Notes under the pieces: generated by a model
What the model was told of the DNA's origin: nothing
Database searches by the model: none
Seen by the model: only the letters and a program-made list of their open reading frames with translations
In this document: positions 1,718 through 22,205 of the stretch, piece after piece
Layout of the letters: the number at the start of each line of letters is the position of its first letter
How positions within the stretch are numbered: the stretch's first letter is position 1
Translations under genes and position numbers: made by a program
IMG/VR virus record: IMGVR_UViG_3300038427_000102
Location: 1 to 24,914 of that record
Reading direction: 5' to 3' (one strand)
Length of the DNA stretch: 24,914 nt
Source: a virus
Lineage: Duplodnaviria > Caudoviricetes

Positions 1718-1790
1718 CTCAGGACCTCGAATCCTGAGTCAGCGCCGGTCGAGTGCCATATACACTCCCGGCGCGACCTTATATGGAGGA
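1718..1790 (+). promoter_or_regulatory. hairpin + pseudoknot leader motif, copy A (upstream of HNH gene)
   Basis: CTCAGGA-cctcgaa-TCCTGAG hairpin; GCGCCGG..GAGTG-ccatata-CACTC-CCGGCGC hairpin; loop CCATATA (1756-1762) is complementary to TATATGG (1780-1786), which overlaps SD GGAGGA. Confidence 0.75.
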
Positions 1791-1795
1791 AGAAT

Positions 1796-2284
1796 ATGAG
1801 CAAAGCTACGCAAGCAGCATGGTACCAAAAGAACAAAGAACTGATCAAAGCGCGAGCCGCAGAATGGGCCAAGAATAACCCTGAACGTGTTGCAGAGATT
1901 CAAAAGAAGAGCCAAGGAAAGCACAAAGAACGCATTAGGAAATATCAAAGAAAACTGTATGCTGTGGGCACACCTGCAAGAGCAAAGAAAAACAAACGTA
2001 CAGCTAAGTGGAAAAAAGACAACCCAGAGGTGTGCCGTGCTCTTGAGAATAAGAGGAGAGCGGCCAAGGCTGAATCAGGTGGGTATTTCACTGCTGAAGA
2101 GTGGTTTATTCTTTGTTTTGCGGTAGGTTTTCGGTGCTTGTGCTGTGGCGAGAAGCGGCATTTAGAAGCGGATCATGTCGTCCCAGTTTCTAAGGGAGGA
2201 CCAAGTTGGTTGTGGAATATTCAACCACTTTGCAAGCCGTGCAACAGTAGCAAGGGAAATAAGATTGTGGACTACCGAGTTTAA
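1796..2284 (+). CDS. HNH homing endonuclease
   Basis: Basic helical N-terminus, then CLCCG...LEADHVVPVSKGG...NIQPLCKPCNSSKG (HNH/zinc motif). Confidence 0.9.
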   Translation: MSKATQAAWYQKNKELIKARAAEWAKNNPERVAEIQKKSQGKHKERIRKYQRKLYAVGTPARAKKNKRTAKWKKDNPEVCRALENKRRAAKAESGGYFTAEEWFILCFAVGFRCLCCGEKRHLEADHVVPVSKGGPSWLWNIQPLCKPCNSSKGNKIVDYRV

Positions 2285-2297
2285 GAGGAAAAAATAA

Positions 2298-4955
2298 ATG
2301 GCAGACGAATATAGCAAGGACGTAAACACCGAGACTACAAATGCTCCGTCTGCACCTATGCCGTATGAGCAACCCGAGCGCCCAGAGGACAGCCCTCTCG
2401 GTTCTTTGGCTCCGATCGAATTCTCGTCCGAGCCATTCGCAGATTTAAGTGAGGATGCAAAAGGTGCGTTGATGCAACTTGACATTCTTGCTACAAAAAC
2501 AGATGTAGCTGCTAGAAGGTTTGAAGTGGAACAAACTTGGGAAAGTTTGCACTTTGATCGCGGTTATCAACATTTGTTGAGAGGTAAACAAGGCGGTTGG
2601 ATTCTTCCCGGGCAAGCTTCAGGCTTTGGCCCAACGTCGCAGCAAAACAACAACACCATCTACGACACGAACGTGTACGGTTCCAAGGGCGACATCATCG
2701 TATCCGCCCTCTCCAGAGAAGTGCCGAAGGTGGAATTCTTCCCGGCCAACCCAGATTACGGGCCAGACATTGTGGCTGCTGAAGAGGCAGACAGTTTCAA
2801 AGAGATTTGGGCACGAAATAACAACCTTCATGCGTTGCTCGTAGATTGCGCACGCATCATGTGGAACGAAGATCGAGTACTTGCTTGGACTCGCTATGAA
2901 TTGAACGGTCAGCTCTACGGTTTTGAAGGTGGAGACGAAGACGACAATGCCCCAGTCACAGCAGAGGACATACTGAATCCGCCCGAGGATACACCTACAG
3001 GCCAAGAAGGTCTGGAGGAGTTTCGTGAGCAGACAGAATCGCCCTTGGGAGACGAAGACGAAGAGGGAGCGGTCCCTGAAGAGACCGAAGAATACATCGT
3101 TCCTCCAGCAGAGCCCATAAAGAAATCTCGTGGTAGGGAAGTCACTACGCTCCACGGAAAGTTGGATCACAAAGTTCCAATTGCTGTGGACTTCATCAAG
3201 GACATGCAGTTTGTGAAGTTGTACGAAGACCTTGACGTAGCGATTGTTAAAGCGAAATACCCGTGGATTGCCGATAAGATCAAGCCGGGTTCAGATAACA
3301 ACACAGAGACAGAATTGGACAGAATTGCTCGTGAAAACACGAGGCAGGCCGTCCTCGGCGCTTACGTGACTGGTGACTCTTTACAGAGACACACGGTCGT
3401 ATCGCATACGTGGTTTCGTCCGTCAATGTTCATGGACGAAAAGGTGAATGATCAGGTTCGTGCTGAACTTTTGGAAGCGTTCCCCAACGGGTGCCTACTC
3501 GTTAAAGCAGGAGCGAACTACGCATACTCGAAGAACGAGAGTATGGATGCTCACCTAGCAATAGGTCACCCATTCTCAGGCAAAGGCCAGAACCGGCGCG
3601 CTCTCGGAACGTCTCTGATCTCCATCCAAAAGAGGATCAACGATTGGGTTGACCTCCAAGACAGTTTCTTCAAGAATACGGTGCCAAAGAAGTGGATGAA
3701 TGCCGAAGCATTCAACATGGACGCCATACAAAAACAGAATAATGTTCCCGGCAGCATCGGTCCCTTTCAACCTCAGCCCGGGCTTACTACCATGGATCAA
3801 TACATCATGGTCGAGCCTACCCCGCAGCCGCAAAATGCTCTGGGCGATTTTATCAAATGGTTCATCACCACTCTTTCAGAAGAGATCACTGGTGCACTCC
3901 CAAGTTTGTTTGGGGCGGCGACTGGTGAGAATACGGTAGGTAACGCGGTAATCCAGATGGATCAGGCACTCCAACGTATAGGGTGCCCATGGAACAACAT
4001 TCAAGACATGTTTGCAGAATGCGCGCGTCAAGCAGTAGGTTGCGCGGCAGACTGTAGAGATGGAAAGAAAATTTCACAGACACTACCGGGTAGAGGAAAG
4101 GTTACAGTCAACACCTCCAACCTCGCCGGTAAGGTTCTATGCTTCCCCGAGGCCAACCCAGCATTCCCCGAGTCTTGGAATCAGAAGGAAGCGAAGTTGA
4201 TCAAGATGATTGACGCAAGTACGCAGAATGAAGCAATTAGACAGTGGTTGTTCTCGCCGTCGAATTTGCCTATACTGCAAAGTGGAATACGTCTGAAGAA
4301 ATTCAAAGTCCCCGGCGCGGACTCAATCACTAAACAGAAGGGGGAGATGGAGTTGCTATTGAGGTCAGGACCAATGCCCAACCCGGCTGTGCTGCAGATA
4401 CAACAAGTACTGATGAAAGCTGCAGAACAGATGCAACTTGCACAAAAGCAGATGCAACCTGTACCGCCAGAAAGCATGGCTATGGTGCAGCAGTTGCAGA
4501 AGCAGATGCAGGCTATGCCTCCACAAGTGAGTACTCTACCTGTTGCGCAGGATGAAAGCGAAAATCACGCAGTGGAAGCTGGTGCTTGTTTTGATTGGAT
4601 AACAAGCAGTGAAGGTCAGGGTTTTAAGTATGGACCTCCCGAGCAGCGTGCAGCATTTCAAAATCTGCATCTTCATTGGAGTGAACATTTAGCTATGGCA
4701 AAGAAGATAGCACTTGCAAATGCTCCTCCAAATAAACCGCCTTCTGAAAGCATCAGTTTGGACATAAGCAAGATGCCTACACCCGTTGCTATACAAGCTC
4801 TCGCAAAGATGCAAATAAACGCGAGCCCAGCTGATTTCCAACAGCACAACGCAGAGCAGTTGAACACCGCAGTACAGAAAAAAGCTATACCCGCTGCATT
4901 AGCGGATCACGGTAAGCAACAATTAGAAGTACCTCCGAGACAGCTTCGGAGATAA
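2298..4955 (+). CDS. probable portal protein
   Basis: 885 aa, GAGGA RBS, upstream of scaffold-like and capsid genes. EEITGALPSLFG segment and Gln/Met/Pro-rich C-terminal region as in P22-like portals; acidic insertion around aa 210-270. Assignment is from context and weak motifs. Confidence 0.65.
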   Translation: MADEYSKDVNTETTNAPSAPMPYEQPERPEDSPLGSLAPIEFSSEPFADLSEDAKGALMQLDILATKTDVAARRFEVEQTWESLHFDRGYQHLLRGKQGGWILPGQASGFGPTSQQNNNTIYDTNVYGSKGDIIVSALSREVPKVEFFPANPDYGPDIVAAEEADSFKEIWARNNNLHALLVDCARIMWNEDRVLAWTRYELNGQLYGFEGGDEDDNAPVTAEDILNPPEDTPTGQEGLEEFREQTESPLGDEDEEGAVPEETEEYIVPPAEPIKKSRGREVTTLHGKLDHKVPIAVDFIKDMQFVKLYEDLDVAIVKAKYPWIADKIKPGSDNNTETELDRIARENTRQAVLGAYVTGDSLQRHTVVSHTWFRPSMFMDEKVNDQVRAELLEAFPNGCLLVKAGANYAYSKNESMDAHLAIGHPFSGKGQNRRALGTSLISIQKRINDWVDLQDSFFKNTVPKKWMNAEAFNMDAIQKQNNVPGSIGPFQPQPGLTTMDQYIMVEPTPQPQNALGDFIKWFITTLSEEITGALPSLFGAATGENTVGNAVIQMDQALQRIGCPWNNIQDMFAECARQAVGCAADCRDGKKISQTLPGRGKVTVNTSNLAGKVLCFPEANPAFPESWNQKEAKLIKMIDASTQNEAIRQWLFSPSNLPILQSGIRLKKFKVPGADSITKQKGEMELLLRSGPMPNPAVLQIQQVLMKAAEQMQLAQKQMQPVPPESMAMVQQLQKQMQAMPPQVSTLPVAQDESENHAVEAGACFDWITSSEGQGFKYGPPEQRAAFQNLHLHWSEHLAMAKKIALANAPPNKPPSESISLDISKMPTPVAIQALAKMQINASPADFQQHNAEQLNTAVQKKAIPAALADHGKQQLEVPPRQLRR

Positions 4956-4960
4956 GAAAT

Positions 4961-5032
4961 CTCAGACCTTGATCAGTCTGGGCTAGCGTATGGGGAAGCC
5001 CGAAACTTCCCCTGCGCGACCTTTCGGGAGGT
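4961..5032 (+). promoter_or_regulatory. hairpin + pseudoknot leader motif, copy B (upstream of GIY-YIG gene)
   Basis: CTCAGAC-cttgatca-GTCTGGG; GGGGAAG-cccgaaa-CTTCCCC; loop CCCGAAA (4999-5005) is complementary to TTTCGGG (5022-5028), which overlaps SD GGAGGT. Confidence 0.75.
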
Positions 5033-5036
5033 AAAG

Positions 5037-5612
5037 ATGATAGTTTATTTGATTACCAATAAAGTGAATGGAAAGCAGTATGTAGGTCAAACTACAAAAA
5101 CTGTAGAAAAGAGATGGGAAAAGCATCTAGAAAATGCAGATTTAGGTATTAAGTTTCTAATCTACAAATCCATAAGAAAGTATGGTGCAGAAAACTTTTC
5201 TCGTGTCATACTTCACGAATGTGAAACCAAAGAAGAGATGGATTTCGTGGAGATGTTCTACATTGCACTACTGAGTACCAAAGCACCAAATGGGCACAAC
5301 TTAACAGACGGTGGAGAAGGCCAATTTGGACGTAGACTTTCAGAAAAAGCTATACAAAAAATGAGAGATGCGTTTACGGGGAAACCAAACCCTAAGAATT
5401 CCGAGCATCTTAAGAAGAACCCAAGACCAAGAAACCCTGTAAATGGCAGATTGTTAAGCGACAACGAAATAGCCACAGGAAATTGGGACACTACACCGGC
5501 AAAAGCCTCTGAAGAGACTCGTCTAAAGATGAGTAAAGCACATGAGGGTTTTAGACATACAGAGGAATCAAAAGCCAAGATGAGAGGAAAACGTGGCCCA
5601 AGAAAAAGGTAA
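5037..5612 (+). CDS. GIY-YIG homing endonuclease with NUMOD3-like C-terminal repeats
   Basis: IVYLITNKVNGKQYVGQT...RWEKH...E..YI...NLTDGGEG; repeats SEETRLKMSKAHEG and HTEESKAKMRG. Confidence 0.9.
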   Translation: MIVYLITNKVNGKQYVGQTTKTVEKRWEKHLENADLGIKFLIYKSIRKYGAENFSRVILHECETKEEMDFVEMFYIALLSTKAPNGHNLTDGGEGQFGRRLSEKAIQKMRDAFTGKPNPKNSEHLKKNPRPRNPVNGRLLSDNEIATGNWDTTPAKASEETRLKMSKAHEGFRHTEESKAKMRGKRGPRKR

Positions 5613-6225
5613 GAAATTGGTTTGTCTCGTACAAAGGCATGGAAGTACAATTTTGAATGAAAGTAATTCCTTCCGTGCGCGAATGGACCCTCCCTTAGAT
5701 GAACAAGGAGAGCAACAAGCTCAGGATGCTGCAGAAAATCTAAGGAACGAAGGGATAAGCCCGGAACGTATAGTCTCCTCTCCTATGCTCAGGGCAGTGC
5801 AAACAGCAGATGCATTTGCAGAAGAATTTGGGTTAGATGTAGAGCAAGATAGGGCTCTTATAAGTTGGAATCTTGGATTTCTTTCGGGAAAAGACAGAGA
5901 CGATTACGGACCAATTCTTGAACTTTATGTGGACAATCCAAAGTTGACCATTCCTGATGGAGAGCCTTTAGTGGATTTAGAAGACCGCACATTTGAATAC
6001 TTTGACAAAGAATTGAAGAAAGATAAATTGACGGTTTTCATAAGTCACAATTCCAACATTGTAACATTAGAATCTTTAATCGCTGGAGACAAAGTAGGAA
6101 GACCAGAATCCTCAGAGACATCAGTGCAGCCGGGAGGTACTATGGCTGTCTATGTAGATGATTCAGGAAAATATACCACAGAGGTTCTTTTTGGCTCAGA
6201 GAAGAAAGCAGAACTGAGTAGTTAG
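5593..6225 (+). CDS. histidine phosphatase (phosphoglycerate mutase-like) family protein
   Basis: Catalytic RHG motif (QRHGST), SSPMLRAVQTA and late VFISH motif; GTG start after GAGGA. Confidence 0.85.
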   Translation: MAQEKGKKLVCLVQRHGSTILNESNSFRARMDPPLDEQGEQQAQDAAENLRNEGISPERIVSSPMLRAVQTADAFAEEFGLDVEQDRALISWNLGFLSGKDRDDYGPILELYVDNPKLTIPDGEPLVDLEDRTFEYFDKELKKDKLTVFISHNSNIVTLESLIAGDKVGRPESSETSVQPGGTMAVYVDDSGKYTTEVLFGSEKKAELSS

Positions 6226-6256
6226 GGAGTTAGTAATGAATGACTGTCTAGTCTAA

Positions 6257-6287
6257 GAATCCCAGACTTCAAGTCTGGGAGCATCAA
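6257..6287 (+). mobile_element. orphan IS200/IS605-family right-end-like palindrome
   Basis: GAAT (6257-6260), hairpin TCCCAGACT-tca-AGTCTGGGA (6260-6280), then TCAA (6284-6287). This is the guide/hairpin/cleavage-tetranucleotide layout of IS608-type right ends. No tnpA or tnpB nearby. Confidence 0.6.
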
Positions 6288-6441
6288 TCAGAAGCAAGAA
6301 TAGCAAGACTCCTCCAAGCAGCCGCGACTCTTTACACGAGCGGCCACGTACGGGAGGATGCAGTGCACGTAGCTCTACAACTGGAAGCACAGGTTGTTGC
6401 TGCGTTAGGCTCAGAGAAAAAGACTCAAGGAGAAGTGACTC

Positions 6442-7905
6442 ATGTCAGATGAAGCAGGAGTTTTAGATTTTACAGGTGTAGATTTAGCAGCCACAGCCTC
6501 AGCAGACGCTTCGGTAGTGACCTCAGAAATTACAGAAACCCCAACGGTAGAAACGCCAGCAGCGGAGACACCAGCAGTCGAAGTACCGACAGATGCACCC
6601 AAAAAAGATCAGAAGACTCAGTATGATAGTTCTGGACAACCTGTTGAGAAGACCGAAGCCGATAAAGCAGAGGATGATGGTAAAGAGTTTGGAGAAAAGA
6701 CTCCGCAAGACGTACGAAAAGCATTGTCTGCCTTCAAGAAGTCTTCTCCAGAAGCGGCAAAAATGTCCGCTCAACTTCATGGTAGCTATGAAAGATGGGA
6801 AGCAACCAAGGCAATTTTCCCTGGTGGCGTCAATGAGATCAAAGCAGCCAAAGAATTCATGGACCTCGTTGGCGGGCACGAAGGGCTAGAATCGCTTTCA
6901 AATGTGAAGGCCAATGCGGAAGCCAGTGACGGCAAGTTGTACGCTGGTGATCCTCAGTTGATCAAGGATATCGAAGCAGACCTGAAGGCACAAGGCAAGA
7001 ATGATGCATGGGGAAAATTAGCCCCTGCCTTCTTGGATGCAGTGAAGGCCAACGATGAAGCCGGATATAAGGCGGCTTTTGCTCCACATTTCGTGGCAGG
7101 TCTGGACTCAGCTAATCTGCCGGGAGCACTGAATTACCTAGTGAAGTCGTTGAATGATCCAGACCCAGCCAAGGCAGTTGCTGCGGCTAAAGAAGCTGCA
7201 TTAGACATCAAGGGTTGGTATGACAAACTTTCAGCCGAGAACAAGAAGGCTAAGGAGAACGTCGTATCCCCCGAGCGCAAGCAGCTCGATGAGGAACGAG
7301 CAGCTTTCTTTAAACAGCAAGAAGAATTCAAGACCAACCAGACGACAGAATTCAAGAACAGCGTTGCCAAGAGTTGCGAGAGTGTCAACAACAAGACCCT
7401 CGGTGCATCACTAGGCTCTTACTTGAATATGCCGTTCTTCAAAGGCTTCGGGCGTGAAAACCTGATGCCTCTGGGCAACACCATCAAGGCTACTCTGTAC
7501 GAAACCCTCAAGGCCGACAGCGCTTATCAGGCGCAGATGAAGGCCATGTGGGGCGCAAAGACTCCTGATCGCGCTAAGATCGAGGAGTACCACAAAGCGA
7601 AGGTGGATTCTATTTCAGAAGACCTCGTACGTGGGGTCGTACAGAAGATGTACCCCGGGTACGCTAAAGGCGGGGCAGCAGCGGGCCGCGTATCAGCTAA
7701 GGCAGAAAAGACAGCTACAGCAGCCAAAGTGGACGCTAAGGCAGTAGCTACCAACAAGCCGGTGTACGTTGCACAGAAGCCCGGTCGAGACATGCTCGAT
7801 ATGGACCACGTTGACAAGAACGGAAAGTCCGATGCAGTCATGGAAATGATTGCAGGCCGAGGGTTCCTCAAGGGCTCAGGCAAATGGATAACCTGGCGTA
7901 AGTGA
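6442..7905 (+). CDS. putative scaffolding/head-assembly protein
   Basis: 487 aa, AAGGAG RBS, acidic low-complexity N-terminus (TETPTVETPAAETPAVEVP), Ala/Lys-rich helical body; lies between portal and capsid genes. Confidence 0.55.
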   Translation: MSDEAGVLDFTGVDLAATASADASVVTSEITETPTVETPAAETPAVEVPTDAPKKDQKTQYDSSGQPVEKTEADKAEDDGKEFGEKTPQDVRKALSAFKKSSPEAAKMSAQLHGSYERWEATKAIFPGGVNEIKAAKEFMDLVGGHEGLESLSNVKANAEASDGKLYAGDPQLIKDIEADLKAQGKNDAWGKLAPAFLDAVKANDEAGYKAAFAPHFVAGLDSANLPGALNYLVKSLNDPDPAKAVAAAKEAALDIKGWYDKLSAENKKAKENVVSPERKQLDEERAAFFKQQEEFKTNQTTEFKNSVAKSCESVNNKTLGASLGSYLNMPFFKGFGRENLMPLGNTIKATLYETLKADSAYQAQMKAMWGAKTPDRAKIEEYHKAKVDSISEDLVRGVVQKMYPGYAKGGAAAGRVSAKAEKTATAAKVDAKAVATNKPVYVAQKPGRDMLDMDHVDKNGKSDAVMEMIAGRGFLKGSGKWITWRK

Positions 7906-7912
7906 TTGAAAA

Positions 7913-7985
7913 TACAGGACTTATAACCCTGTACTAGAGTTGGGAGGTGCACGAACACCTCCCTGCTCAACCTTTTCGTGGAGGA
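7913..7985 (+). promoter_or_regulatory. hairpin + pseudoknot leader motif, copy C (upstream of GIY-YIG gene)
   Basis: TACAGG-acttataac-CCTGTA; GGGAGGTG-cacgaa-CACCTCCC; loop CACGAA (7950-7955) is complementary to TTCGTG (7975-7980), which abuts SD GGAGGA. Confidence 0.75.
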
Positions 7986-7989: not shown

Positions 7990-8580
7990 ATGTTTGGAAT
8001 AATTTACAGAATTACCAATGCCGAAACAGGTATGGAATACGTAGGACAAACCGTGCAATCCCTTAGAGAACGCTGGGTAGAGCACATGTCTCATGCTCGG
8101 CAAGTAAAAAGCCAATCCTATATGTCTCGGGCTCTTAGGAAGTACCCGATTGAAGCATTCGTTGTAGAGTCGATTCACGAGTGTGAATCCCAAGAAGAAC
8201 TGGATTTTGTAGAAACCTTCTACATTTCCCTACTCAACACTAAGGCTCCCAATGGGTACAATTTAGCAGACGGCGGTGGAGGAGTTTCTGGGTGGCAGAA
8301 TGGCAAAGGAAATGTGCCCACCGAAGAGACGAGAAAAAGACTCAGTGAGGCTGGAAAAGGCAACACAAATGCCTTGGGTAAAAAGTATTCAAAAGAGTTT
8401 TGTGAAAAGATTAGCGTAGCCTTGAGTAAACGGGTGCGCAAGGAAGAATCGTATAACACTCCGAAATGTCTAGAGAAAAGAAAGAACTATAGACATGGGA
8501 AGGAAGCAAGGGCCGCTATTAGCGCAGGGCTTAAGGGAAAACCTTGGTCTGAAACAAGGCGCGCGGCACAAAGAGTTTAG
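7990..8580 (+). CDS. GIY-YIG homing endonuclease (paralogue of 5037..5612)
   Basis: GIIYRITNAETGMEYVGQT...RWVEH; HECESQEELDFVETFYISLLNTKAPNGYNLADGG is close to the 5037 gene. ATG 7990 follows SD GGAGGA. Confidence 0.9.
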   Translation: MFGIIYRITNAETGMEYVGQTVQSLRERWVEHMSHARQVKSQSYMSRALRKYPIEAFVVESIHECESQEELDFVETFYISLLNTKAPNGYNLADGGGGVSGWQNGKGNVPTEETRKRLSEAGKGNTNALGKKYSKEFCEKISVALSKRVRKEESYNTPKCLEKRKNYRHGKEARAAISAGLKGKPWSETRRAAQRV

Positions 8581-8735: not shown

Positions 8736-11700
8736 ATGGCACTATTAGAGGCTTAACAACAGTGGGCCTCATTAAATTCAACCTGATTGACTCGAACGCT
8801 GAAATGCCAACGAGGGCGAACCTGCAAAGGACGCTGAGAGACTAAGCGGTTGAACTCCTACGGGAAGATGCAATAGTCCGAACTCACAGGAACACAACTG
8901 TGAGAGGTTAGCAGAAATGACTAACCCGTACGTAATACGTAACAACATGGCTGTTGAAGCAGTCGAACTAGACGCTACCCAATAGCAAAGGCGTCTACAA
9001 TTCCTTATTGAAAAAAGTTTGCTAAGGAAATCCCTAAACAAAATTGGGGATTAAAAACCCACTCTGATTGACTTGAAACCTGAAACGGCAACAAGGGGCA
9101 AGCGAAAGCAGCCTGAGAGACTAAGCGAGAGGGGCGTCCACAAGACGCATGCGATAGTCCGTTCTCATGGGAACAACAACCATGAGAGGTTGACGGAAAC
9201 GATCAACCCAGAACACAGTAACAAGTAAGGATTTGGTTTTCCATGGCACAACCGCCTATAGCCTTTTCAAGGCAGAAGCAACATCTATCCCCGTGTCCAA
9301 CCAGTCAAACGCTGGTGGCACCGTCCGTGCATCATTCCGTGTGCCTTTCCGTGTGCAGTCCGGCGCGGCAATCTCACAAGGAACTGGTAACGCTGACGCT
9401 ATGGGCCGTGGCACTGGCTCGCAGTGGGCATCGTTCGCGCTGGCACCCGTTTATCTGTTCAACGTGTAAATTTCATGCGCGTTTAAAAGTTGTCCGTATC
9501 GGTGAAACCCTAGCATTTCATGAGGTAAATATGAGTGTAGAAAATACCGAGGTAAGAAGTCAGAGTTTATCAGAGTTGCAAATTGGATACCTCGCAGGAA
9601 TCATGGACGGAGAGGGATCAATCACTTTCGTGTACCATAAGTGCAAGACGAATGTGAATGTTCTGTATTCTCCTGTCGTGTATATATGCGCGGTGGCAAA
9701 CTCCAATCCACTGATAATCCAAGCTGTCGAATCTCTTTTGAAGAACCTTCCTATTAGGTACAAAGTGTACTCACCTAAGCAGGAATGGAACAAGAAAGCA
9801 AAGAAGAAACCGTACGCCATTCATTTGATGGGTATGAATTCTGCTAAGCATTTCTTAAACGTCATCTGTAAGCACCTCAATGGCAAGAGGCAGCAAGCGG
9901 AGTTGGTACTTGAGTATCTGGAACGCAGAGAAGAAGGTCAACGAGTAAAATTCATGACGGAGAGAGATTGGCAAATCATCCACACTGTTCGAAATATGAA
10001 CAGGAATTATGGTGCTGACTTTACCGTAGAGACTAAACGACAACCTTCGCTAACGGGCGAAGAAGTTATAGTCCGAACTGTATAGTGATGTACAGAGGGA
10101 GCAGAAATGCACTCCCCGAATGTCATTACTTATTTTTAAGTGATTACATTTAGTAACAATTTGGTGAAATCTCGTGGTTAGCTCAGGCTTCCACGGATAG
10201 CAAGCAGAAGGGTCTTTTTGCCGTTAAGTCCAAAGCTTTGGCGGCTGTTGCAGGCAAATAAAAGCAACAAAAATTCGCTATATCGGGGAACCTCTGGTAT
10301 ACTATGATTAGTAAATCAGACAATCCCGAGGGAAGATAGTAATGACAAAACAGTCGAAGTTTTCGTACCTAGCAGGTTTCATGGATGGGGAAGGTTCCTT
10401 CTCTATCGTCAAAACCTTCTCTGTTCAAAGAAAACGGGACGGAAGTAAGCAGAAATACGTAACCTACAAATGTATGGTTTCAGTCACCAACACACACAAA
10501 GGTGTTATGGACTGGATCGCCAAGACTTTTGGTGGAAAAGTTCTCACGGGCAACAATGAGAACAGAAACCCCAAGTACAAGACTAGGTATTCGTGGTTCA
10601 GAACGAGCCACGAGGACATTGAAAAATTTACGTTAGGAATTCTGCCTTACCTCATTGTTAAAAAGGAACAGGCACTAGTGACTTTAGAGTTCTGCAAAAC
10701 GTATCAAGCAGAGCGTATAGGCACAGCCCTGAACCCAGAAGTGCAAGTTAAGAGAGATGAATTGAGGAAGAAAATGATGTCCCTTAATGGAGTTTACTCT
10801 GGCGCTTCTACTAGACCCGTAGAGACTACACGCGAGACCCCTCAAATAGAGGGTGATGATATAGTCCGAACTGCATAGTGATATGCAGAGGGTTGGCAGA
10901 AATGCCCAACTTTTGTCAGAAGAATGTACACAAACTTCTTTCAAATAACAAATTGTAAAGCACAGGAAATGAAGAACTCTCTCGACGCCGCAATGCAGGG
11001 CATAGAAGGGCTCATCAACTCAGACGGGTCTGGTAAACAAACAATCTGCCTGACCTTATAAACATGTAGAGAATTCGGTGAAAACCCTTAGGGGCAATAC
11101 CGAGCCGCTCCTCGTATCTGGGGAAGGTGTAACGACTATCCCGAAAGGGAGTAGGGAACAGTGTTCCCGAAGCACTACAACCTTTATGAAAAACTCAAAT
11201 GAAATACTCTGGTCGTATCTGGCTGGGCTGTTCGATGGTGAAGGCACCGTCTGCATAAGCACCAGTCACAACCGAAACAATACAGCTATTTTCCAGATGA
11301 ATGTGAAAGTGGCTAACACTAAGTTGGAACTGATGCAGTGGCTGATTAAAAACTTCGGCGGGTTTTACTCGGTGAGTCAAGCTAAATGCGAAGGAAATAA
11401 TAGAGCTACTCAATATGCGTGGATGCCTAAAGGCAAGAACAATCGAATAGAGGTTCTAGAAAAAATGCTGCCATACTTGGTTATAAAAAAGCAGCAGGCT
11501 CTTATTGGTTTGGACTTTGAAAGAGTGTATGAAGGACGAAACGGATGTCAGCCGGGACTAAAACTGACAACCGACAGTCCTATCTACGTTGAAGCCCACG
11601 CAAAGAGGCTAGAATTAAGAGATCAGCTCGTAAAGCTGAATCGTAAAGGTAAGATATAGTCTGAACTCATAGGCAACTATGAGAGTGTGCGCGGAAACGG

Positions 11701-12811
11701 CGCATGCGTAACAGTATTGATGATTGACCAGATCCCCGCCACAGCAACCTTCGGTACAGGTACTGGTGCACAGACGGCCAGCATTGTTGGCATGAACGTC
11801 GCAGTGGCGTTCAGCGATCAGCAAGTGGTTTCGTTCTACACCGTTGGTGGCGTGAAGCGTGTCGGTGGTGGATACACATCGGCAACGATCTCGTACGTTG
11901 ACGGCCCTTCGAACACCCTGTGGTTCAGCACCCCGCTCCCGACCGATCTCGCAGTCACCGACTACGTGGTTGTGAACGGTGCAACATACGGAACTGGCGC
12001 GTCCGTCCTCGGCATCAAAGCTTGGGATGTGAACTCCAACTCCGGTACCATCGCGGGCTTGAACCGCGCGTCTTACCCCGGGCGTCTGAGCACACCGACG
12101 ATTAACCTCAACGGCGCTGCGATTACACCGGGCATCGCACAGCGTGCAGAAGTCTTGTTGGGACGCGCACTCGGACCCGATGCAGACTCTATCAAGAGCG
12201 GCATCTGGTACGGCCCGCCTGAGCAAGCTTTCGCACAAAGCAACTTGATGTACAACGTTCAGATCGTGAACGCACAGGAAGTCAAGGGCGACAAGACGAT
12301 GGACATGGCCCGCAAGTATTTCAGTGATACTTTCGGCGGCAGGAAATATCACAAGTCTTGGACGGCGATCAACAACCGTATGGACTTGCTTGTACTAGAC
12401 AACTGGTACATTGGGGAATTGTCTCCCCTTGAGCTGTATGATTTCGGTGGTGGCAACGTCGTTGCTCCCGTGCCGGACATCAGTTCAACCACTGGTACCG
12501 CGAGTTACTTGACCTCGCACATGTTCGCATATAACACCTGCTTTTCCACAAAGGTTGGAGCAGTATAAACCCCATCTGATTGACTCGAACGCTGAAATGC
12601 CAACGAGGGCGAACCCGAAAGGGACGCTGAGAGACTAAGCGATAGGGCACCGAAAGGTGATGCAATAGTCCGAACTATACGGGAACAATAACCGTATGAG
12701 TGCAACAGAAATGATTGCACCACGCATAGCGTGTAACAAATATGTAACCTTGCGAACGCGGCTCCGCGCGCCGGTCTATACATCCAAAACGCGGCAGTTC
12801 CCACTATCTGA
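8736..12811 (+). CDS. major capsid protein, split into 8 exons: 8736-8753, 8950-8976, 9018-9035, 9230-9467, 10164-10224, 10956-11034, 11720-12543, 12745-12811 (443 aa spliced)
   Basis: AAGGA RBS then ATG 8736. Joining at U/G boundaries predicted independently by P1 and P10 pairings gives 1332 nt with no internal stop: MALLEA|AVEAVELDA|FAKEIP|DLVFHGTTAYSLFK...YLFNVC(split)EISWLAQASTDSKQKGLFAV(split)KAQEMKNSLDAAMQGIEGLINSDGSG|MIDQIP...AYNTCF(split)NLANAAPRAGLYIQNAAVPTI*. Position after the scaffold-like gene, size, the DGSG motif and the NL...P..G..I.N C-terminus fit an HK97-fold coat protein. Confidence 0.85.
8754..8949 (+). ncRNA. group I intron 1 (196 nt, ORF-less)
   Basis: P1 GAGGCU/GGCCUC with U.G; P10 CAACAGU/GCUGUUG; P3 UUCAACC/GGUUGAA; P7 elements GAGACUA (8838-8844) and AUAGUCC (8873-8879); P9 hairpins; terminal G8949. 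Confidence 0.92.
8977..9017 (+). ncRNA. 41-nt core-less group-I-like mini-intron (intron 2)
   Basis: P1 UAGACGCU (8969-8976)/GGCGUCUA (8990-8997) ending in U.G; P10 UAGCAAA (8983-8989)/UUUGCUA (9018-9024); terminal G9017. Contains an in-frame TAG and shifts frame; no P3-P8. Confidence 0.8.
9036..9229 (+). ncRNA. group I intron 3 (194 nt, ORF-less)
   Basis: P1 AAUCCCU/GGGGAUU with U.G; P10 AAACAAAAUU/GAUUUGGUUU (1 mismatch); GAGACUA (9117-9123), AUAGUCC (9154-9160); terminal G9229. Confidence 0.92.
9468..10163 (+). mobile_element. group I intron 4 (696 nt) carrying a LAGLIDADG endonuclease
   Basis: P1 AACGUGU/GCGCGUU; P10 AUUUCAU/GUGAAAU; P3 GUUGUC (9489-9494)/GACAAC (10039-10044); GAGACUA (10029-10035), AUAGUCC (10068-10074); terminal G10163. 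Confidence 0.9.
9531..10085 (+). CDS. intron-encoded single-motif LAGLIDADG homing endonuclease
   Basis: GYLAGIMDGEGSI motif and HLNGKRQQAELV; GAGGT RBS before ATG 9531. Confidence 0.9.
   Translation: MSVENTEVRSQSLSELQIGYLAGIMDGEGSITFVYHKCKTNVNVLYSPVVYICAVANSNPLIIQAVESLLKNLPIRYKVYSPKQEWNKKAKKKPYAIHLMGMNSAKHFLNVICKHLNGKRQQAELVLEYLERREEGQRVKFMTERDWQIIHTVRNMNRNYGADFTVETKRQPSLTGEEVIVRTV
10225..10955 (+). mobile_element. group I intron 5 (731 nt) carrying a LAGLIDADG endonuclease
   Basis: P1 GCCGU/GCGGC; P10 GCUUUG/UAAAGC; P2 UGUUGC/GCAACA; GAGACUA (10822-10828), AUAGUCC (10861-10867); terminal G10955. Confidence 0.9.
10342..10878 (+). CDS. intron-encoded single-motif LAGLIDADG homing endonuclease
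   Basis: SYLAGFMDGEGSF motif; FGG; ILPYLIVKKEQA (I-CreI-like). Confidence 0.92.
   Translation: MTKQSKFSYLAGFMDGEGSFSIVKTFSVQRKRDGSKQKYVTYKCMVSVTNTHKGVMDWIAKTFGGKVLTGNNENRNPKYKTRYSWFRTSHEDIEKFTLGILPYLIVKKEQALVTLEFCKTYQAERIGTALNPEVQVKRDELRKKMMSLNGVYSGASTRPVETTRETPQIEGDDIVRTA
11035..11719 (+). mobile_element. group I intron 6 (685 nt, IA-like with P7.1/P7.2) carrying a LAGLIDADG endonuclease
   Basis: P1 GGGUCUGGU/GCCUGACCU; AACGACUA (11131-11138) followed by hairpins UCCC-gaaa-GGGA and GGGAAC/GUUCCC; AAGAUAUAGUCU (11651-11662); terminal G11719 (G11722 is a one-codon alternative). Confidence 0.88.
11186..11659 (+). CDS. intron-encoded single-motif LAGLIDADG homing endonuclease
   Basis: SYLAGLFDGEGTV motif; NFGG; MLPYLVIKKQQA. 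ATG 11186 is preferred over the track start 11078, which lies in the ribozyme core. Confidence 0.9.
   Translation: MKNSNEILWSYLAGLFDGEGTVCISTSHNRNNTAIFQMNVKVANTKLELMQWLIKNFGGFYSVSQAKCEGNNRATQYAWMPKGKNNRIEVLEKMLPYLVIKKQQALIGLDFERVYEGRNGCQPGLKLTTDSPIYVEAHAKRLELRDQLVKLNRKGKI
12544..12744 (+). ncRNA. group I intron 7 (201 nt, ORF-less, core nearly identical to intron 1)
   Basis: P1 CUGCUU/GAGCAG with U.G; P10 AAGGUUG/UAACCUU; GAGACUA (12631-12637), AUAGUCC (12665-12671); terminal G12744. Confidence 0.92.
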
Positions 12812-12935
12812 TTGATTCTAAAGCGGTTAGATGGGCAGTGTTTAGGGTTCTCTGCAGGGAATCCTTGGGTTGGAAGATTGCTGCAGCTTTCTTCCTTCTC
12901 AAAACAATTTGTGCCAGGGCGACGGCCATGGCACC

Positions 12936-12980
12936 GTATGGGAGCAGCCTCAATCTGCTCCCATACACTCTATTGAGGAG
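12936..12980 (+). promoter_or_regulatory. hairpin + pseudoknot leader motif, copy D (upstream of endonuclease VII-like gene)
   Basis: GTATGGGAGCAG-cctcaat-CTGCTCCCATAC; loop CCTCAAT (12948-12954) is complementary to ATTGAGG (12972-12978), which overlaps SD GAGGAG. The first hairpin is reduced or divergent. Confidence 0.72.
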
Positions 12981-12985
12981 AGAAT

Positions 12986-13540
12986 ATGCCATACAAAAAC
13001 AAAGCAGATGCCAACGCTGCAGCACGTAGACGTTGGAAAGAAAACCCAGAAGCACGAAGGAAGCAAAAATCTGCTACACAAAAGTGGCAGGATGATAACA
13101 AAGAGCGCTGGAATGATTACAGAAACAAATGGATGAAGACTGACAGGGACGAAAACATAGAAGTTCGTAGAGCTTATGAATTCGCCCGAGAGATGAAGAA
13201 GTACGGAAAATCTATAGAGTGGTACAGGGACAAGCTCGTTGAGCAGCTTGGAGTCTGCGCAATGTGCGGGCATTTCAATCACTCTCAGCGTGGAGAACTG
13301 CATAGATTGCAGGTTGACCACGATCACGGATGTTGCGACAAAAGAACCCATAGTTGTGGTGAGTGTGTCAGGGGGCTTATTTGTGAGAAGTGTAACCTGA
13401 GGCTTGCCCCAATTGAACTTCTGCTTTCCGAGTTCCCCTTCGAGAGACAGGATCAAGCGGAGATTTACCTAAGAAATTCAGTGCGTCAAGACTCATGGAC
13501 GTACCGAGCACTAAAATACCTCAAGCAGTACACCGCCTAA
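12986..13540 (+). CDS. endonuclease VII-like (His-Me) homing endonuclease
   Basis: QLGVCAMCG...LQVDHDH...VRGLICEKCN signature; basic helical N-terminus. Confidence 0.88.
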   Translation: MPYKNKADANAAARRRWKENPEARRKQKSATQKWQDDNKERWNDYRNKWMKTDRDENIEVRRAYEFAREMKKYGKSIEWYRDKLVEQLGVCAMCGHFNHSQRGELHRLQVDHDHGCCDKRTHSCGECVRGLICEKCNLRLAPIELLLSEFPFERQDQAEIYLRNSVRQDSWTYRALKYLKQYTA

Positions 13541-13805: not shown

Positions 13806-14102
13806 ATGCTTCAGTATTTGACACCAGCAGCAATTTTTGTGGTAGGACTCATCATCGTCTTCTGGCCTATGAAGACAGCAAGGACTTGTAGTGAACTTCC
13901 TAAAGAGCATTATTGGACAACCATCATAGAAAATAATGTTGAGGCAATACTGAAAGACTTGGGTGCAGAGGTTGAAGGCACGCTTTTCCCTACGAACGAG
14001 GAAGACGCTCGTGAGATGTATCTCAGGTGGTGTAAGAAATTGGAAGAGATTGAAGCCAAGAAAGAAGAACCCTTAGGAGACTCAGAATGGAAACAGGAAT
14101 AG
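13806..14102 (+). CDS. hypothetical protein with N-terminal transmembrane helix
   Basis: AAGGAG RBS before ATG 13806; PAAIFVVGLIIVFWP hydrophobic segment. Confidence 0.7.
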   Translation: MLQYLTPAAIFVVGLIIVFWPMKTARTCSELPKEHYWTTIIENNVEAILKDLGAEVEGTLFPTNEEDAREMYLRWCKKLEEIEAKKEEPLGDSEWKQE

Positions 14103-14812
14103 GCGATAGACTCGCGCGTGGGTGCCCAACGGCACAATTTGCAGGTGCGAGCAGCAACATTACGGACTTTGAGAACGACTTCATCTACATGGAAGTCGAA
14201 AAAGTGATGGAAAAGTACGGACTCAGTCAAGCAGAATTTGACTTATATCACGCGCAGCGTGAAAGTGGTGATCGTCTACCTGATTTGACTCCCGTAGCGC
14301 TCCAAGTAGGGCTGGATGCGGGGTTTTCCGTAGCAGATCACCGTCATAACTACTTGTCAGAAACTACAGTGCCTGCTCCAGTGAGGGCAGAGGCCCCTAA
14401 GAAGTACCCAGAGCCCACATACGGCACGGCTCGGCCTATTTTGGACCGAATTTTGGTCATGCGTATCTCAGACGACCCCGATACTGAGCTTTTAGAGGAT
14501 GGATCGACCAGAAATAAGAAATCTGGACTCATCACAGCCGCAAAATATCGTCAGCACAGCAACGTGGGCCTAGTTTTGGCTGCGGGGGGCTTTGTAGTCC
14601 TAGGGGGTCTCAGGATTCCCATGGAAGAGCTGATAACTCCTTTAGATAAAGTGATTTACGGCGACTATAATTCGGAGTGCTTTCCAATGGACAAAAATAA
14701 GGTGGAAGCGCTCTGCGATTCTCTCGGAGTAAACTACGTAGATGACCAACAAGGGCTCAGGATCGTCCGAGTCCAAGATGTGAGAACCGTAGAAAAGCCG
14801 GTGAAGAAATGA
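14087..14812 (+). CDS. GroES/Cpn10-like co-chaperonin domain with N-terminal extension
   Basis: C-terminal half RPILDRILV...KSGLI...GLVLAAGG...DKVIYGDY...IVRVQDV parallels GroES motifs (RPLHDRVIV, GGIV, GEVLAVG, GDIVIF, IMSESDI). Confidence 0.7.
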   Translation: METGIGDRLARGCPTAQFAGASSNITDFENDFIYMEVEKVMEKYGLSQAEFDLYHAQRESGDRLPDLTPVALQVGLDAGFSVADHRHNYLSETTVPAPVRAEAPKKYPEPTYGTARPILDRILVMRISDDPDTELLEDGSTRNKKSGLITAAKYRQHSNVGLVLAAGGFVVLGGLRIPMEELITPLDKVIYGDYNSECFPMDKNKVEALCDSLGVNYVDDQQGLRIVRVQDVRTVEKPVKK

Positions 14813-15366
14813 GGGAACGATTCTGCATAGCTACTGGTTGCAAAAAGGTGAATGTGTCCAAAGGTTATTGCATGAAGCATAGGCGTCAAATTCTAGGCCC
14901 ATTCCCATCAGACTCTAAAGAGTCCAAAGTGAAATCAGACACTCGCATGAAGAGGCGAAAGGGAATGCCAATTTTCAAGGCGGAAAGAAACGCTAGAAGT
15001 CTAGAATATAACGCCAAAGTTAAAGGGAGAGCCCTGTCCCACTACAGTAAAGATGGCATCATAAAATGCCAAGCAGAAGGCTGTGAAGTAAACGACCCAG
15101 ATATGTTATCTCTTGATCATATCAACAATGATGGGGCTAAAGATAGAAAGCTCGGTAGGGGATACGCAGGTGTAGCTCTCTACGGAATGCTTGAGAGAGA
15201 AAAGTTTCCTGAAGGGTTTCAAACTCTTTGCTTTAATCATCAAAGCAAAAAAGAGTTGGAACGAAGAAGGGCCCACGCGTTGTCTACTATCATTCTTTCC
15301 TACTTGGTTCCTACCATGTTCTTTACTTCGTACGGAAAGGATTTGCAATGTCAGACTCAGAGTTAA
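14809..15366 (+). CDS. HNH-like endonuclease with N-terminal zinc finger
   Basis: CIATGC...KGYCMKH finger; CQAEGC...LSLDHINNDG...FQTLCFNH. Confidence 0.75.
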   Translation: MRERFCIATGCKKVNVSKGYCMKHRRQILGPFPSDSKESKVKSDTRMKRRKGMPIFKAERNARSLEYNAKVKGRALSHYSKDGIIKCQAEGCEVNDPDMLSLDHINNDGAKDRKLGRGYAGVALYGMLEREKFPEGFQTLCFNHQSKKELERRRAHALSTIILSYLVPTMFFTSYGKDLQCQTQS

Positions 15367-16353: not shown

Positions 16354-16364
16354 GAGGACTCAGA

Positions 16365-16973
16365 TTGCCGTATAAAGACCCAGCGAAACAGGCAGAAAGC
16401 CAAAGACGCAGATATTGGGCTAACCCAGAACAGAGCAGAGAACGCGGTAGAAAGTATACAAAACTCTACGGAGAAAGACATCCAGAAAAGTTGAAAGAAG
16501 CAGCATTAAAGCGCTCACCTATAGAAATAAAAGAGACTCAGGCAAGGTGGCGTGAAAGAAACAAAGAAAGAAAGAGTGCACAAGTTGCAAAGTGGAAGAT
16601 AGACAATCCTGACAAAGTTAGGGCACTTTACCATAAGCGTAGAGCACAGAAGACTCAGGCTGGTGGCTTTTTCACCTCTGAAGAATGGTTCCTTTTGTGT
16701 TTTGCTGTGGGATTCAGGTGCTTGTGCTGCGGTTTGAAAAAGCCTTTAGAAGCAGACCATGTGGTCCCAATTTCTAAAGGTGGAACAAGTTGGCTGTGGA
16801 ACATTCAGCCGCTGTGCGAATCCTGTAACACTAAAAAGCACTGCCAGATCATAGATTACAGAGACTCAGAGCAGAACTCAGTTGGCGCTAATGCGCCGGA
16901 AAAGGAAATAAAAAATCTATGGAGCCTACCCTTACCTCGCCAGTACATCGCTCAGACCTTAGCGAAAGCATGA
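16365..16973 (+). CDS. HNH homing endonuclease (paralogue of 1796..2284)
   Basis: EEWFLLCFAVGFRCLCCG...LEADHVVPISKGGTSWLWNIQPLCESCN; AGGAGG RBS, TTG start. Confidence 0.9.
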   Translation: MPYKDPAKQAESQRRRYWANPEQSRERGRKYTKLYGERHPEKLKEAALKRSPIEIKETQARWRERNKERKSAQVAKWKIDNPDKVRALYHKRRAQKTQAGGFFTSEEWFLLCFAVGFRCLCCGLKKPLEADHVVPISKGGTSWLWNIQPLCESCNTKKHCQIIDYRDSEQNSVGANAPEKEIKNLWSLPLPRQYIAQTLAKA

Positions 16974-17791: not shown

Positions 17792-17933
17792 GACAAGCCG
17801 TGGGTTTCCCTCAGAGAGACCCACGCAAATTTCAGTATCAAAGCTTACCGGGCAAAGGGCATCATGAGTAACGATGTCTGAGTCCATCGCGAATTGAGGC
17901 TTAGAGCCCGGTATGTAAACTTTTAGAGAGCGA

Positions 17934-17968
17934 GCCAACGTGAACAGCGTTGGCCTCTTTTCGTGTTT
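17934..17968 (+). terminator. possible intrinsic terminator/attenuator
   Basis: GCCAACG-tgaacag-CGTTGGC followed by CTCTTTTCGTGTTT, just before the RBS of 17985. Confidence 0.35.
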
Positions 17969-17984
17969 ATAGGAGCAGTACAAA

Positions 17985-18839
17985 ATGTCTTCACCAACGA
18001 TCAACGGTAATCTAGCGGGCATGCAGGACACAAGTCTACTTACTATATCAAACCTAGTTAGGGCTTTAATCAACGACTCACAAGCAGGTTTGACAGGTAC
18101 TCCCGGGGAGGGGCAAATCTGGGTCGATAATAGTTCTGTAGCACCTTTTGTACAGCCTTTACTAATGTCTGCAATACGTAATCTCTACAGACAACTGCGC
18201 AATGTCGGAGACCCATCCCTCATTTATGACTCATACATTATCTCTGGTATAACCCCGGTGAACGGAGCAAATGGTCTCGGAATGCCGGACCCTGCTACGC
18301 AAGTTTTTATCTCCCAAAATGGGTACTTTGATGGCACAGAGATTTGGCCCAACCTCACTCTGCCTAGCAATATGCTAAGTTTAGAGAAAGTTTGGGAACG
18401 GCAAACAGGAACGAACAACACCTTCGTGCAAATGCGACAGCCCCAAGGGGGCATGGGTTCCCGTCCGCAACAGCCTTCATTTATAGAGTGGGAATGGAGG
18501 AATTATCAATTGTGGATGGTGGGCAGCACACAGACAAACGATCTTAGATTACGTTACTGGGGGACTCTGCCTACCTTTTATAGCCCCACGCTAGACTACG
18601 CATCTACTTACGTTCCAATTTATGACTGTACGGATGCGGTAGCTTATTTGGCCGCGGTCATGTATAGCCGTATGCTAGGTACCCCCGGTCTACCAGACTT
18701 AATCGGTGAAGCCAAGGAACAGATGCATCAGTTGAAAAACGCAGTTGTGAAACGCATGCAGACCATAGATTTCCATAGGCATCCATTTGGTAGTTCTGGG
18801 CAGCACGATACAAACAATCAATTCATGGGCTGGATTTAA
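17985..18839 (+). CDS. putative head-completion/neck (adaptor) protein
   Basis: 284 aa, AGGAG RBS. Helical N- and C-termini flank a beta-rich middle (WEWRNYQLW...LRLRY), as in head-tail adaptors; lies before the tailspike. Function is inferred. Confidence 0.45.
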   Translation: MSSPTINGNLAGMQDTSLLTISNLVRALINDSQAGLTGTPGEGQIWVDNSSVAPFVQPLLMSAIRNLYRQLRNVGDPSLIYDSYIISGITPVNGANGLGMPDPATQVFISQNGYFDGTEIWPNLTLPSNMLSLEKVWERQTGTNNTFVQMRQPQGGMGSRPQQPSFIEWEWRNYQLWMVGSTQTNDLRLRYWGTLPTFYSPTLDYASTYVPIYDCTDAVAYLAAVMYSRMLGTPGLPDLIGEAKEQMHQLKNAVVKRMQTIDFHRHPFGSSGQHDTNNQFMGWI

Positions 18840-18848
18840 GGAGAACAC

Positions 18849-21200: not shown

Positions 21201-21215
21201 ACAGGGAGGGCTCAG

Positions 21216-21416
21216 ATGTGGGATAAAATATTATCAGCGGCTAAGGATTACCACTTGCCTATCGCTGTGTTCGTCTTCATAGTAGGTTCAGTGATGCAGT
21301 GGTTTCATCACCTCGACGCAGCATACGTGGCGTACACAGCAACAGTGCTTGGGGCTGTAACTGGGCATGCATTCAGTCCGGCGCAGCAGGACAAATCTGA
21401 CGGTACAAGCAAGTGA
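21216..21416 (+). CDS. small membrane protein, holin-like
   Basis: 66 aa, GGGAGG RBS, two hydrophobic helices, polar charged tail. Confidence 0.5.
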   Translation: MWDKILSAAKDYHLPIAVFVFIVGSVMQWFHHLDAAYVAYTATVLGAVTGHAFSPAQQDKSDGTSK

Positions 21417-22129
21417 GACGCCTAGAAAGGCATAGGAAACCCGAGGTTGCCCTTCCTCCCGGCAATGCTGCAACGATAATTATACCTAGCAAATACCCGG
21501 ATATCTTCGAAGGGTGCAGAAGCAGCCTTGAGCAGTATGCTCCGCAGGCACCCAAGATTCTGGTGCGTGACGGGGACGCCATAGGGAACCCTAAGGGCTG
21601 GACGGTCATTCAAGGGGTTTCTCCCTTCATTTACGCTAGAAACTGTAATATAGGTATACAGGCATGTTCTGACGATATATTACTTTGCAACGATGATGTG
21701 AGATTTCTTCATACTGGAACGTTGTATACTTTGCAGAGCCTTTTCGTCACCCACCCACACGTAGGCATTCTCTCCCCCAGCGTGGACGGCGTAGCAAACG
21801 GTGTTTCATGCTCGGGGCAAGCTGTGCATGAGACCAAGCATTATCTCAGCTTCGTCTGTGTCCTAATTCGGCGCGCGCTGATCGACAAGATCGGACTTCT
21901 GGACGAGAAATTCACTTTTTATGGGGGAGAAGACGTGGATTACTGCCGCAGAGCACAGCGTGCGGGCTTTACGCTCGCGGTTACGTCGCTGGTGACGGTC
22001 GCACATAAGCATGCTAGTTCTTCATACACCAGAGAGCATGCGCTAGAGTTGAAAAGAGAAGCAGCAAACAGGTATTATGTTGAGAAATGGGGCCGTAGAA
22101 CGCCCGGGCATTATGCAGATGAAGTTTGA
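21413..22129 (+). CDS. glycosyltransferase family 2
   Basis: TIIIPS, YARNCNIGI, ILLCNDDV, IGLLDEKF..YGGEDVDYCRRA motifs. Confidence 0.88.
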   Translation: MRRLERHRKPEVALPPGNAATIIIPSKYPDIFEGCRSSLEQYAPQAPKILVRDGDAIGNPKGWTVIQGVSPFIYARNCNIGIQACSDDILLCNDDVRFLHTGTLYTLQSLFVTHPHVGILSPSVDGVANGVSCSGQAVHETKHYLSFVCVLIRRALIDKIGLLDEKFTFYGGEDVDYCRRAQRAGFTLAVTSLVTVAHKHASSSYTREHALELKREAANRYYVEKWGRRTPGHYADEV

Positions 22130-22134
22130 AACAT

Positions 22135-22205
22135 CTCAAGACCTCGAATCTTGAGCTAGGGCTGGGAGCAGCCTTCACTGCTCCCTTCCCGTCCTTGAAG
22201 GAGGA
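22135..22205 (+). promoter_or_regulatory. hairpin + pseudoknot leader motif, copy E (upstream of HNH gene)
   Basis: CTCAAGA-cctcgaa-TCTTGAG (same loop as copy A); GGGAGCAG-ccttca-CTGCTCCC (same stem as copy D); loop CCTTCA (22172-22177) is complementary to TGAAGG (22196-22201), which overlaps SD GGAGGA. Confidence 0.75.

Follow-up and report, generated by a model that had tools for sequence, protein, structure and literature searches.

Five free-standing endonuclease genes in one stretch of phage DNA are each preceded by a copy of the same small structured RNA leader. The stretch (hereafter the window) comprises the 24,914 nucleotides (nt) at positions 1 to 24,914 of IMG/VR record IMGVR_UViG_3300038427_000102, from a tailed phage of the Caudoviricetes, and the leaders, 45–75 nt in length, run into the Shine–Dalgarno (SD) sequence of the gene that follows. 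Comparison of related copies showed four covarying predicted helices, namely P1, P2, P3 and a pairing of 6–7 bp between L2 and L3, the loops of P2 and P3 (the kiss). We propose, with a probability of roughly 60%, that the leader functions as an intramolecular kissing-loop translational lock over a strong ribosome-binding site (RBS), which would keep translation of the nuclease low; the repression itself we infer from the sequences.

All five leaders lie on the plus strand where a first-pass annotation of the window had placed them, and its nuclease assignments hold. Leader A (1718–1789; P1 1718–1738; P2 1742–1774, L2 1756–1762; P3 1777–1789, L3 1780–1786; SD inside L3/P3) stands before an HNH endonuclease gene (1796–2284; Pfam HNH E = 1.6 × 10−10). 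Leaders B (4961–5032; P1 4961–4982; P2 4986–5017, L2 4999–5005; P3 5019–5032, L3 5023–5028) and C (7913–7984; P1 7913–7933; P2 7937–7968, L2 7950–7955; P3 7971–7984, L3 7975–7980) precede GIY-YIG/NUMOD3 endonuclease genes (5037–5612, Pfam E = 2.3 × 10−13, and 7990–8580, Pfam E = 3.8 × 10−8, respectively). Behind leader D, which consists of the core only (12936–12982; P2 12936–12966 with 12 bp, L2 12948–12954; P3 12968–12982, L3 12972–12978), lies an Endonuclease VII-like gene (12986–13540; Pfam E = 3.6 × 10−8), and behind leader E (22135–22206; P1 22135–22155; P2 about 22159–22190, L2 22172–22177; P3 22191–22206, L3 22196–22201) another HNH gene (22209–22763) that is weak in Pfam (E = 0.005) and backed by PHROG HNH families (E = 6 × 10−7). 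From A to E the loop and its partner read CCATATA/TATATGG, CCCGAAA/TTTCGGG, CACGAA/TTCGTG, CCTCAAT/ATTGAGG and CCTTCA/TGAAGG, as the annotation had stated, and the ATG of the nuclease gene lies 7–9 nt past the end of the loop partner in every copy. P3 has 3 bp in A, 4 bp in C and D, 4–5 bp in E, and 4 bp in B, where the kiss has 6 bp. Two details had to be revised: the short GACC/AACC/GTCC-like "linker" is actually the 5′ strand of P3 and pairs with the SD, and the supposed reduced first hairpin of copy D is instead a different inverted repeat (12909–12937).

The loop–loop pairing is borne out in a much wider set of copies. A search with the portal protein provided 78 loci, to which pattern scans added more; a covariance model that leaves the loop pairing unmodelled (R1) gave 145 hits in 97 sources. 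Among 131 distinct copies in related phages, 124 have near-complete loop pairing, and 100 of the 112 seven-base loops pair at all seven positions, with 51 different loops in the clade of the window. As this set contains training rows picked for the pairing, scans in which the pairing was left free weigh more. With the central bases left open in the pattern, 21 of 24 distinct viral matches proved fully complementary. A free-pairing scan of metagenomes found the kiss in 51 of 52 stem-bearing matches as against 4 of 46 stemless ones, and a second such scan, covering 24 of the 64 collection parts and yielding mostly copies unlike the window's type, found it in 65 of 66 as against 2 of 36. Covariation over the whole structure exceeded that in 500 of 500 shuffles and in all slid controls, a result made partly circular by the choice of rows. 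The lower half of P2 also covaries, and G–U pairs are tolerated throughout. The seven copies of the 131 without a kiss are all cut in or near the partner strand, and none has an intact nuclease gene directly after it. The core is found in other phage lineages too; a complete 110.8-kb phage with no match to the window's portal bears four leaders. A few variants (L027:39-133, L271, L276 and L052:256-348) have a kiss one pair longer, with 1–2 additional bases left unpaired between the kiss strand and P3, which is what a loop–loop geometry would need. We rejected the notion that the loops form an address code within a genome, as identical loops occur together in L002 and L037.

The annotation had described a conserved covarying pseudoknot, and the covariation stands. 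In a classical H-type pseudoknot the loop pairs with a single-stranded 3′ segment; the partner here is itself the predicted loop of the covarying helix P3. Among 108 register-clean rows from the window's clade, the third pair of P3 is C–G in 96, T–A in 6, A–T in 1 and the mismatch C–A in 5 (counts 6/5/0/97, Fisher p = 2 × 10−7, computed on sequences that are not independent); in the wide set it is formed in 62 of 66 copies (T–A 38, C–G 20, A–T 2, T–G 2, unpaired 4). When the 5′ strand of P3 was left free in a scan, a P3 of at least 4 bp was present in all 12 hits whose P2 has at least 7 bp and in none of the four with stems of 4–5 bp. The 3′ strand of P3 is the end of the SD, and the last two bases of the kiss partner are SD bases; the anti-SD is split in two, the start of L2 being able to pair with the GG of GGAGG and the 5′ strand of P3 with its AGG. 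With the partner of L2 lying in the loop of the SD hairpin, the structure is probably more aptly called a kissing loop, one covering GGAGG from two sides. What it covers is a strong start site: GGAGG, AGGAG or longer in 111 of 124 copies, a start codon 7–8 nt past the kiss in 90 of 124, and ATG in 111 of 119 downstream open reading frames (ORFs).

The two loops are 14 nt apart in five copies, 15–21 nt in 66 and 22–30 nt in 15, and among 75 matches at a spacing of 8–13 nt there was a single marginal copy (11 nt, no start codon); these spacing scans covered 44, 24 and 43 of the 64 collection parts. A crude A-form estimate would put the floor for closure within one molecule near 13–14 nt, and a distance floor with a long tail fits pairing within one molecule rather than in a fixed dimer. 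A fixed two-turn dimer geometry was rejected, the loop-to-loop distance varying from 14 to 30 nt in the wider family.

A structural descriptor, written from the finding itself and thus post hoc, recovers all five leaders of the window, as against 0.7 ± 0.8 sites (maximum 3) in 100 block-wise dinucleotide shuffles, on the plus strand. Model R1, trained with four window copies, returned only the same five sites at 29.5–76 bits (next best 11.3), and model R2, trained with three, did so at 23.3–41.1 bits (next best 7.0); neither model found a sixth leader in the window. The covariance models of Rfam 15 gave no match over the five leaders at E ≤ 10 and none over the leaders of 20 divergent loci, in agreement with the annotation, which had not recognized a named family.

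In the mechanism we favor, L2 would pair with the loop of the SD-holding hairpin P3, bury the SD and keep nuclease translation low. Median energies over 124 copies, loop costs excluded, are +0.4 kcal/mol for P3 alone, about −9 for the lower part of P2 and about −11 for stacking in the kiss. P3 alone appears too weak to block ribosomes, so that the kiss would supply the lock. Release would come from a short interval on each new transcript together with breathing, through delayed folding of the kind proposed at the MS2 maturation gene, and would yield a little nuclease wherever transcription is strong. P1 would be an add-on that likely shields the site from ribosomes finishing translation of the gene upstream, or that braces the fold. 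Not every copy has it: a hairpin with one of the P1 loop types occurs in 47 of 83 wide-set copies, and where present P1 is preceded by a conserved AT and an A-rich stretch. In 58 of the 131 copies P1 starts 3–7 nt past the stop of the upstream gene. The 3′ strand of P1 was considered as an anti-anti-SD and rejected, as it does not covary with the anti-SD. An antisense terminator in P1 was flagged in one of three P1-bearing copies in the scanned range, by a scan performing at chance level.

By the A-form estimate, a P2 of 12–13 bp, a 7-bp kiss and P3 do not fit together in a single molecule with a 2-nt linker, and no more than about 9 bp of P2 could remain paired alongside the kiss. The kiss would therefore be barred while the lower P2 is paired, and two folds of similar energy would compete, one with full P2 and a weak P3, the other with the upper P2, the kiss and P3. 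Several points weigh against such a lock. This geometry comes from a back-of-envelope model. Covariation is silent on whether the kiss and P3 form together, and an H-type pseudoknot with P3 open suits many copies. Deletion of the hairpin of T4 I-TevI did not reduce phage viability through nuclease toxicity, as described in PMC2988022, and the benefit of the lock may hence lie elsewhere. A passive lock leaves unexplained the conserved junction bases (UAG opposite CGA) and the few recurring types of P1 loop, and some related leaders precede replication genes. Further, the leader is not required for carrying a nuclease: in five records of about 100 kb, only 17 of 38 nuclease hits have one by manual reading (a script alone flagged 11), and five of the 21 leaderless hits have a promoter-like site directly upstream.

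Some of these points would be met if the same lock were opened or closed by a factor acting in trans, such as a phage or host protein, ribosomal protein S1, a metal or a metabolite, making it a switch that times homing. This would account for the conserved junction and P1 loops, whose types recur across architectures, three-way junctions included; the two states are close in energy, and copies retain a strong SD and an ATG beneath the lock while a leaderless paralogue at 16365 simply uses TTG. Few bases outside the SD and anti-SD are invariant, however, and many copies lack P1, and we regard such a switch as unlikely; the nucleases themselves would be an improbable ligand because they are unrelated to one another. 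A related and tentative idea, to which we would give a small but real chance, is a gene-independent mobile RBS lock, a single RNA family that is plugged in before dose-sensitive genes (the seven nuclease clusters, a helicase and a replisome-organiser-like gene) and opened by a specific phage or host signal at the conserved P1 loop or junction. If true, a signal-opened lock would represent a new class among translational switches, one setting the time of homing in the course of infection. The pairing might instead activate translation, as in the repZ leader pseudoknot of ColIb-P9/IncI plasmids, where it needs a leader peptide and is blocked by antisense RNA according to the description in PMC4705826: termination upstream would remodel the leader, and a long-range pairing would open the start for re-initiation. 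In both systems, as far as that description goes, the loop of a hairpin pairs with bases at the downstream SD, and the position of P1 close behind an upstream stop and the relatives before replication genes would fit. The repZ pairing, however, lies just upstream and frees the SD, whereas here it takes in SD bases with P3 covering the rest; the P1 3′ strand and the anti-SD do not covary, many copies lie behind a promoter-like site and have no ORF upstream, and no leader peptide is common to the copies. We consider this reading improbable.

The remaining explanations place the function of the leader elsewhere than in a lock closing on its own start site. An element for RNA processing or stability (a ribozyme, an RNase site or an exonuclease block) that makes a separate nuclease mRNA would suit the A-rich stretch and conserved AT before P1, the compact predicted fold and the copies behind tRNA-like genes in other phages; it is decidedly improbable given the lack of a ribozyme or other match in Rfam, the fixed spacing to the start codon, and conserved bases that are mostly those of the SD, the anti-SD and the helix ends. 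Loops kissing between two molecules, so that transcript dimers shut off translation when abundant, would overcome the failure of P2, kiss and P3 of the window type to close together, and the helices of the clade sum to about two turns. The wider family nevertheless has a distance floor and no fixed length, and identical loops co-occur in one genome, leaving the dimer highly improbable. There is likewise a very slight chance that the symmetry serves mobility at the DNA level, as a cassette end or recombination site. The sharp borders, the absence of the element from empty sites and the 96%-identical leaders before different nuclease families at different loci speak for this, and against it the tolerance of G–U pairs, the invariable position on the coding strand at a fixed distance to SD and start, and the lack of a matching element at the other cassette end (looked for by eye, in the window). 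The alternatives offered by the first-pass annotation, namely an RNA partner, a processing signal or a mobility end, found little support.

The association of the kissing-loop leader with nucleases holds among its homologues, with a nuclease or NUMOD3 hit in 29 of 35 downstream proteins tested from the wide set. The 119 distinct downstream ORFs form seven clusters and 14 singletons, mostly truncated. Two clusters are GIY-YIG-type (21 and 27 members, the larger assigned by a motif seen by eye, NUMOD3 hits and one PHROG homing-endonuclease hit), one is Endonuclease VII (23), one HNH (19) and three HNH-like (8, 5 and 2, the first assigned by one weak PHROG hit); the singleton L089 is not nuclease-like. 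Leader ancestry is almost independent of nuclease family: a leader and its nearest neighbor among the leaders stand before the same family in a fraction of 0.28 of 103 cases versus 0.19 ± 0.04 with shuffled labels, and leaders 96% identical front GIY-YIG and HNH genes at separate loci. Empty sites behind the portal gene (L008, L015, L017, L023, L032, L062 and L066) lack the element entirely, and filled ones carry differing leaders with GIY-YIG, HNH or Endonuclease VII genes. Together with the covariation and the absence from Rfam, this gives good support to the view of a shared, portable cis module covering the SD of unrelated nuclease genes. Leaders might change genes by exchange at the SD or within shared N-terminal DNA-binding modules, though this is a guess. 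Separately, we observed leader remnants where all or most of the nuclease gene had been deleted (L003:2979, L012:876/3676/7967, L026:2393, L047:12545, L054:3742/4154, L170 and L274), whose breakpoints cluster near the partner strand and the SD.

That the leader was not seen before any non-nuclease gene is true of the window, where it fails to cover all nucleases: two more free-standing nuclease-like genes on the plus strand are leaderless and serve as internal controls. One (16365–16973, TTG start) is an HNH gene paralogous to the one behind leader A, with 67% identity across 100 aa; the other (14809–15366) is HNH-like, starts in overlap with the upstream stop and shares 61% identity across 84 aa with a gene of L066 that does have a leader. 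Outside the window the claim does not hold. Homologous AAA_25 helicase-like genes stand behind leaders with different, compensated loops in L875 and L844, and the gene in L617 weakly resembles replisome organisers, with matches under the bar for naming; that of L927, with which L943 is grouped, looks similar by eye.

Nor is the leader confined to late transcripts, as had been supposed, many copies lying behind promoter-like sites of their own or after tRNA-like genes. The inverted repeat that replaces P1 before leader D (12909–12937, plus strand) is promoter-like (−35, 17 nt, extended −10) in the relatives L018:18540, L032:11789, L037:11625 and L265, and sigma70-like −35/−10 spacing was noted in three relatives; in the window its −10 is degenerate, and a consensus promoter scan did not list it. 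Palindromes of this type have a conserved CGACGG center and occur before Endonuclease VII-type genes; they may be operators for autorepression. Core-only leaders behind a promoter-like site with a long palindromic spacer were observed in L490, L516, L520, L605, L608, L631, L638, L639, L682 and L690, and this site, found before unrelated nucleases, is a second shared module. In L949, L952 and L955 (G017, G016) the leader comes right after what by eye resemble tRNA 3′ ends, with a common T-rich palindromic spacer. In long copies the predicted fold is a three-way junction whose P2 encloses a P1-like hairpin (L849, L850, L906, L933, L823, L834, L869 and L922); several of them retain UAG opposite CGA, which in the window form is found at the base of P2.

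Among the known systems closest to the leader are the hairpins that sequester the RBS in T-even homing endonuclease genes (I-TevI/II/III, segB and Aeh1 mobE; PMC2988022) and in those of fractured-gene endonucleases (PMC2677866). As these sources present them, they too lie directly upstream of homing-endonuclease genes of several families with the SD base-paired, and the likeness likely extends to translational damping. The T-even element is, however, a single hairpin with a late promoter inside the stem that releases the SD, whereas here several helices are joined by loop–loop pairing, the anti-SD is spread over two of them, a freely varying pairing of 6–7 bp closes the lock, and homologous RNAs of one family pass between unrelated nucleases. 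By this analogy the leader would work like the T-even endonuclease hairpins and yet it fails their single-hairpin definition. Promoter-like sites, where seen, lie upstream of P2 or the core, though a late promoter inside the leader may exist. The 5′ untranslated region of the MS2 maturation gene, as described in PMC4615214, also has its SD buried at equilibrium and a low output from delayed folding. It is an RNA-phage cloverleaf with a long-distance duplex, and it has no kissing loop and no homology to the leader. Kissing loops over an RBS are found in the class II cobalamin riboswitch, and fully paired 7-nt loop complexes in ColE1 RNAI/RNAII; in comparison, the leader has no recognizable aptamer and no Rfam match and pairs in cis. 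Partner RNAs of the OMEGA/HEARO type are large, go with one nuclease family and have a free guide segment, whereas this leader is short, uncoupled from nuclease family, and has its variable bases paired within the RNA. No self-cleaving ribozyme core was matched in Rfam by the five leaders or the 20 divergent loci.

Literature searches found no description of the leader motif, and the words "endonuclease" and "kissing" are absent from the main text of PMC5737381. A structured-RNA screen of IMG/VR lists an unnamed motif, DNAVirus_8080, of 79 nt with 29 sequences from phages of soil, wetland and groundwater, lying no more than 25 nt ahead of HNH, GIY-YIG and AP2 genes and with one covarying base (PMC10690425). 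It may be the same motif, going by description (length, habitat and neighbors) only. It does not appear in main-text passages of PMC10690425, and three 9-base leader motifs, in DNA and RNA spelling, were not found in the searchable supplement tables. The restraint of free-standing homing endonucleases within strongly expressed phage operons is known only for a few T-even hairpins, and most such T4 genes had no evident control in the account of PMC2988022. The natural family found here is large and clearly structured, with as many as 51 loops in a single clade, and makes nuclease restraint testable by a simple reporter. Exchange of the leader between unrelated nucleases suggests that regulation spreads among selfish genes apart from the enzymes, and a 45-nt lock with freely changeable central loop pairs could become a part for synthetic biology.

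The phage is tailed and uncultured, and the window covers part of its structural region; related IMG/VR records reach about 100 kb. The gene for a P22-like portal protein (2298–4955, plus strand), in the structural operon, has its stop codon 5 nt upstream of leader B; its ESM Atlas features score 0.97 to clusters with P22_portal on 12–19% of members, which we treat as a lead, and it has no Pfam or PHROG match and no cultured phage relative among 50,697 records. Searching with leader C by blastn gave no real match. A pattern scan of a genome collection gave one real match in 23, a 1.2-kb contig in a Terracidiphilus metagenome-assembled genome that carries the portal end and a leader; four hits lie on 1–2-kb contigs of that bin. 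As model R1 found nothing in 150 other genomes of the Terracidiphilus family, an Acidobacteriota host is a hint only.

Several group I introns interrupt the gene at about 8940–12810 (within 8780–12810), probably that of the major capsid protein; Rfam gave three Intron_gpI hits there, all below the gathering score. Three of the introns carry LAGLIDADG ORFs, none with a leader. Elsewhere the structural region contains a histidine phosphatase gene (5593–6225), a weak GroES-like domain (14087–14812; E = 0.0016) and a glycosyltransferase cluster (21413–24234). Between the SD and the start codon of five genes (13551, 13798, 14079, 16357 and 21209) stands the 7-base word GACTCAG (once GGCTCAG), which recurs in intergenic DNA of relatives upstream of the gene homologous to 6442–7905 and is possibly a protein-binding or processing signal.

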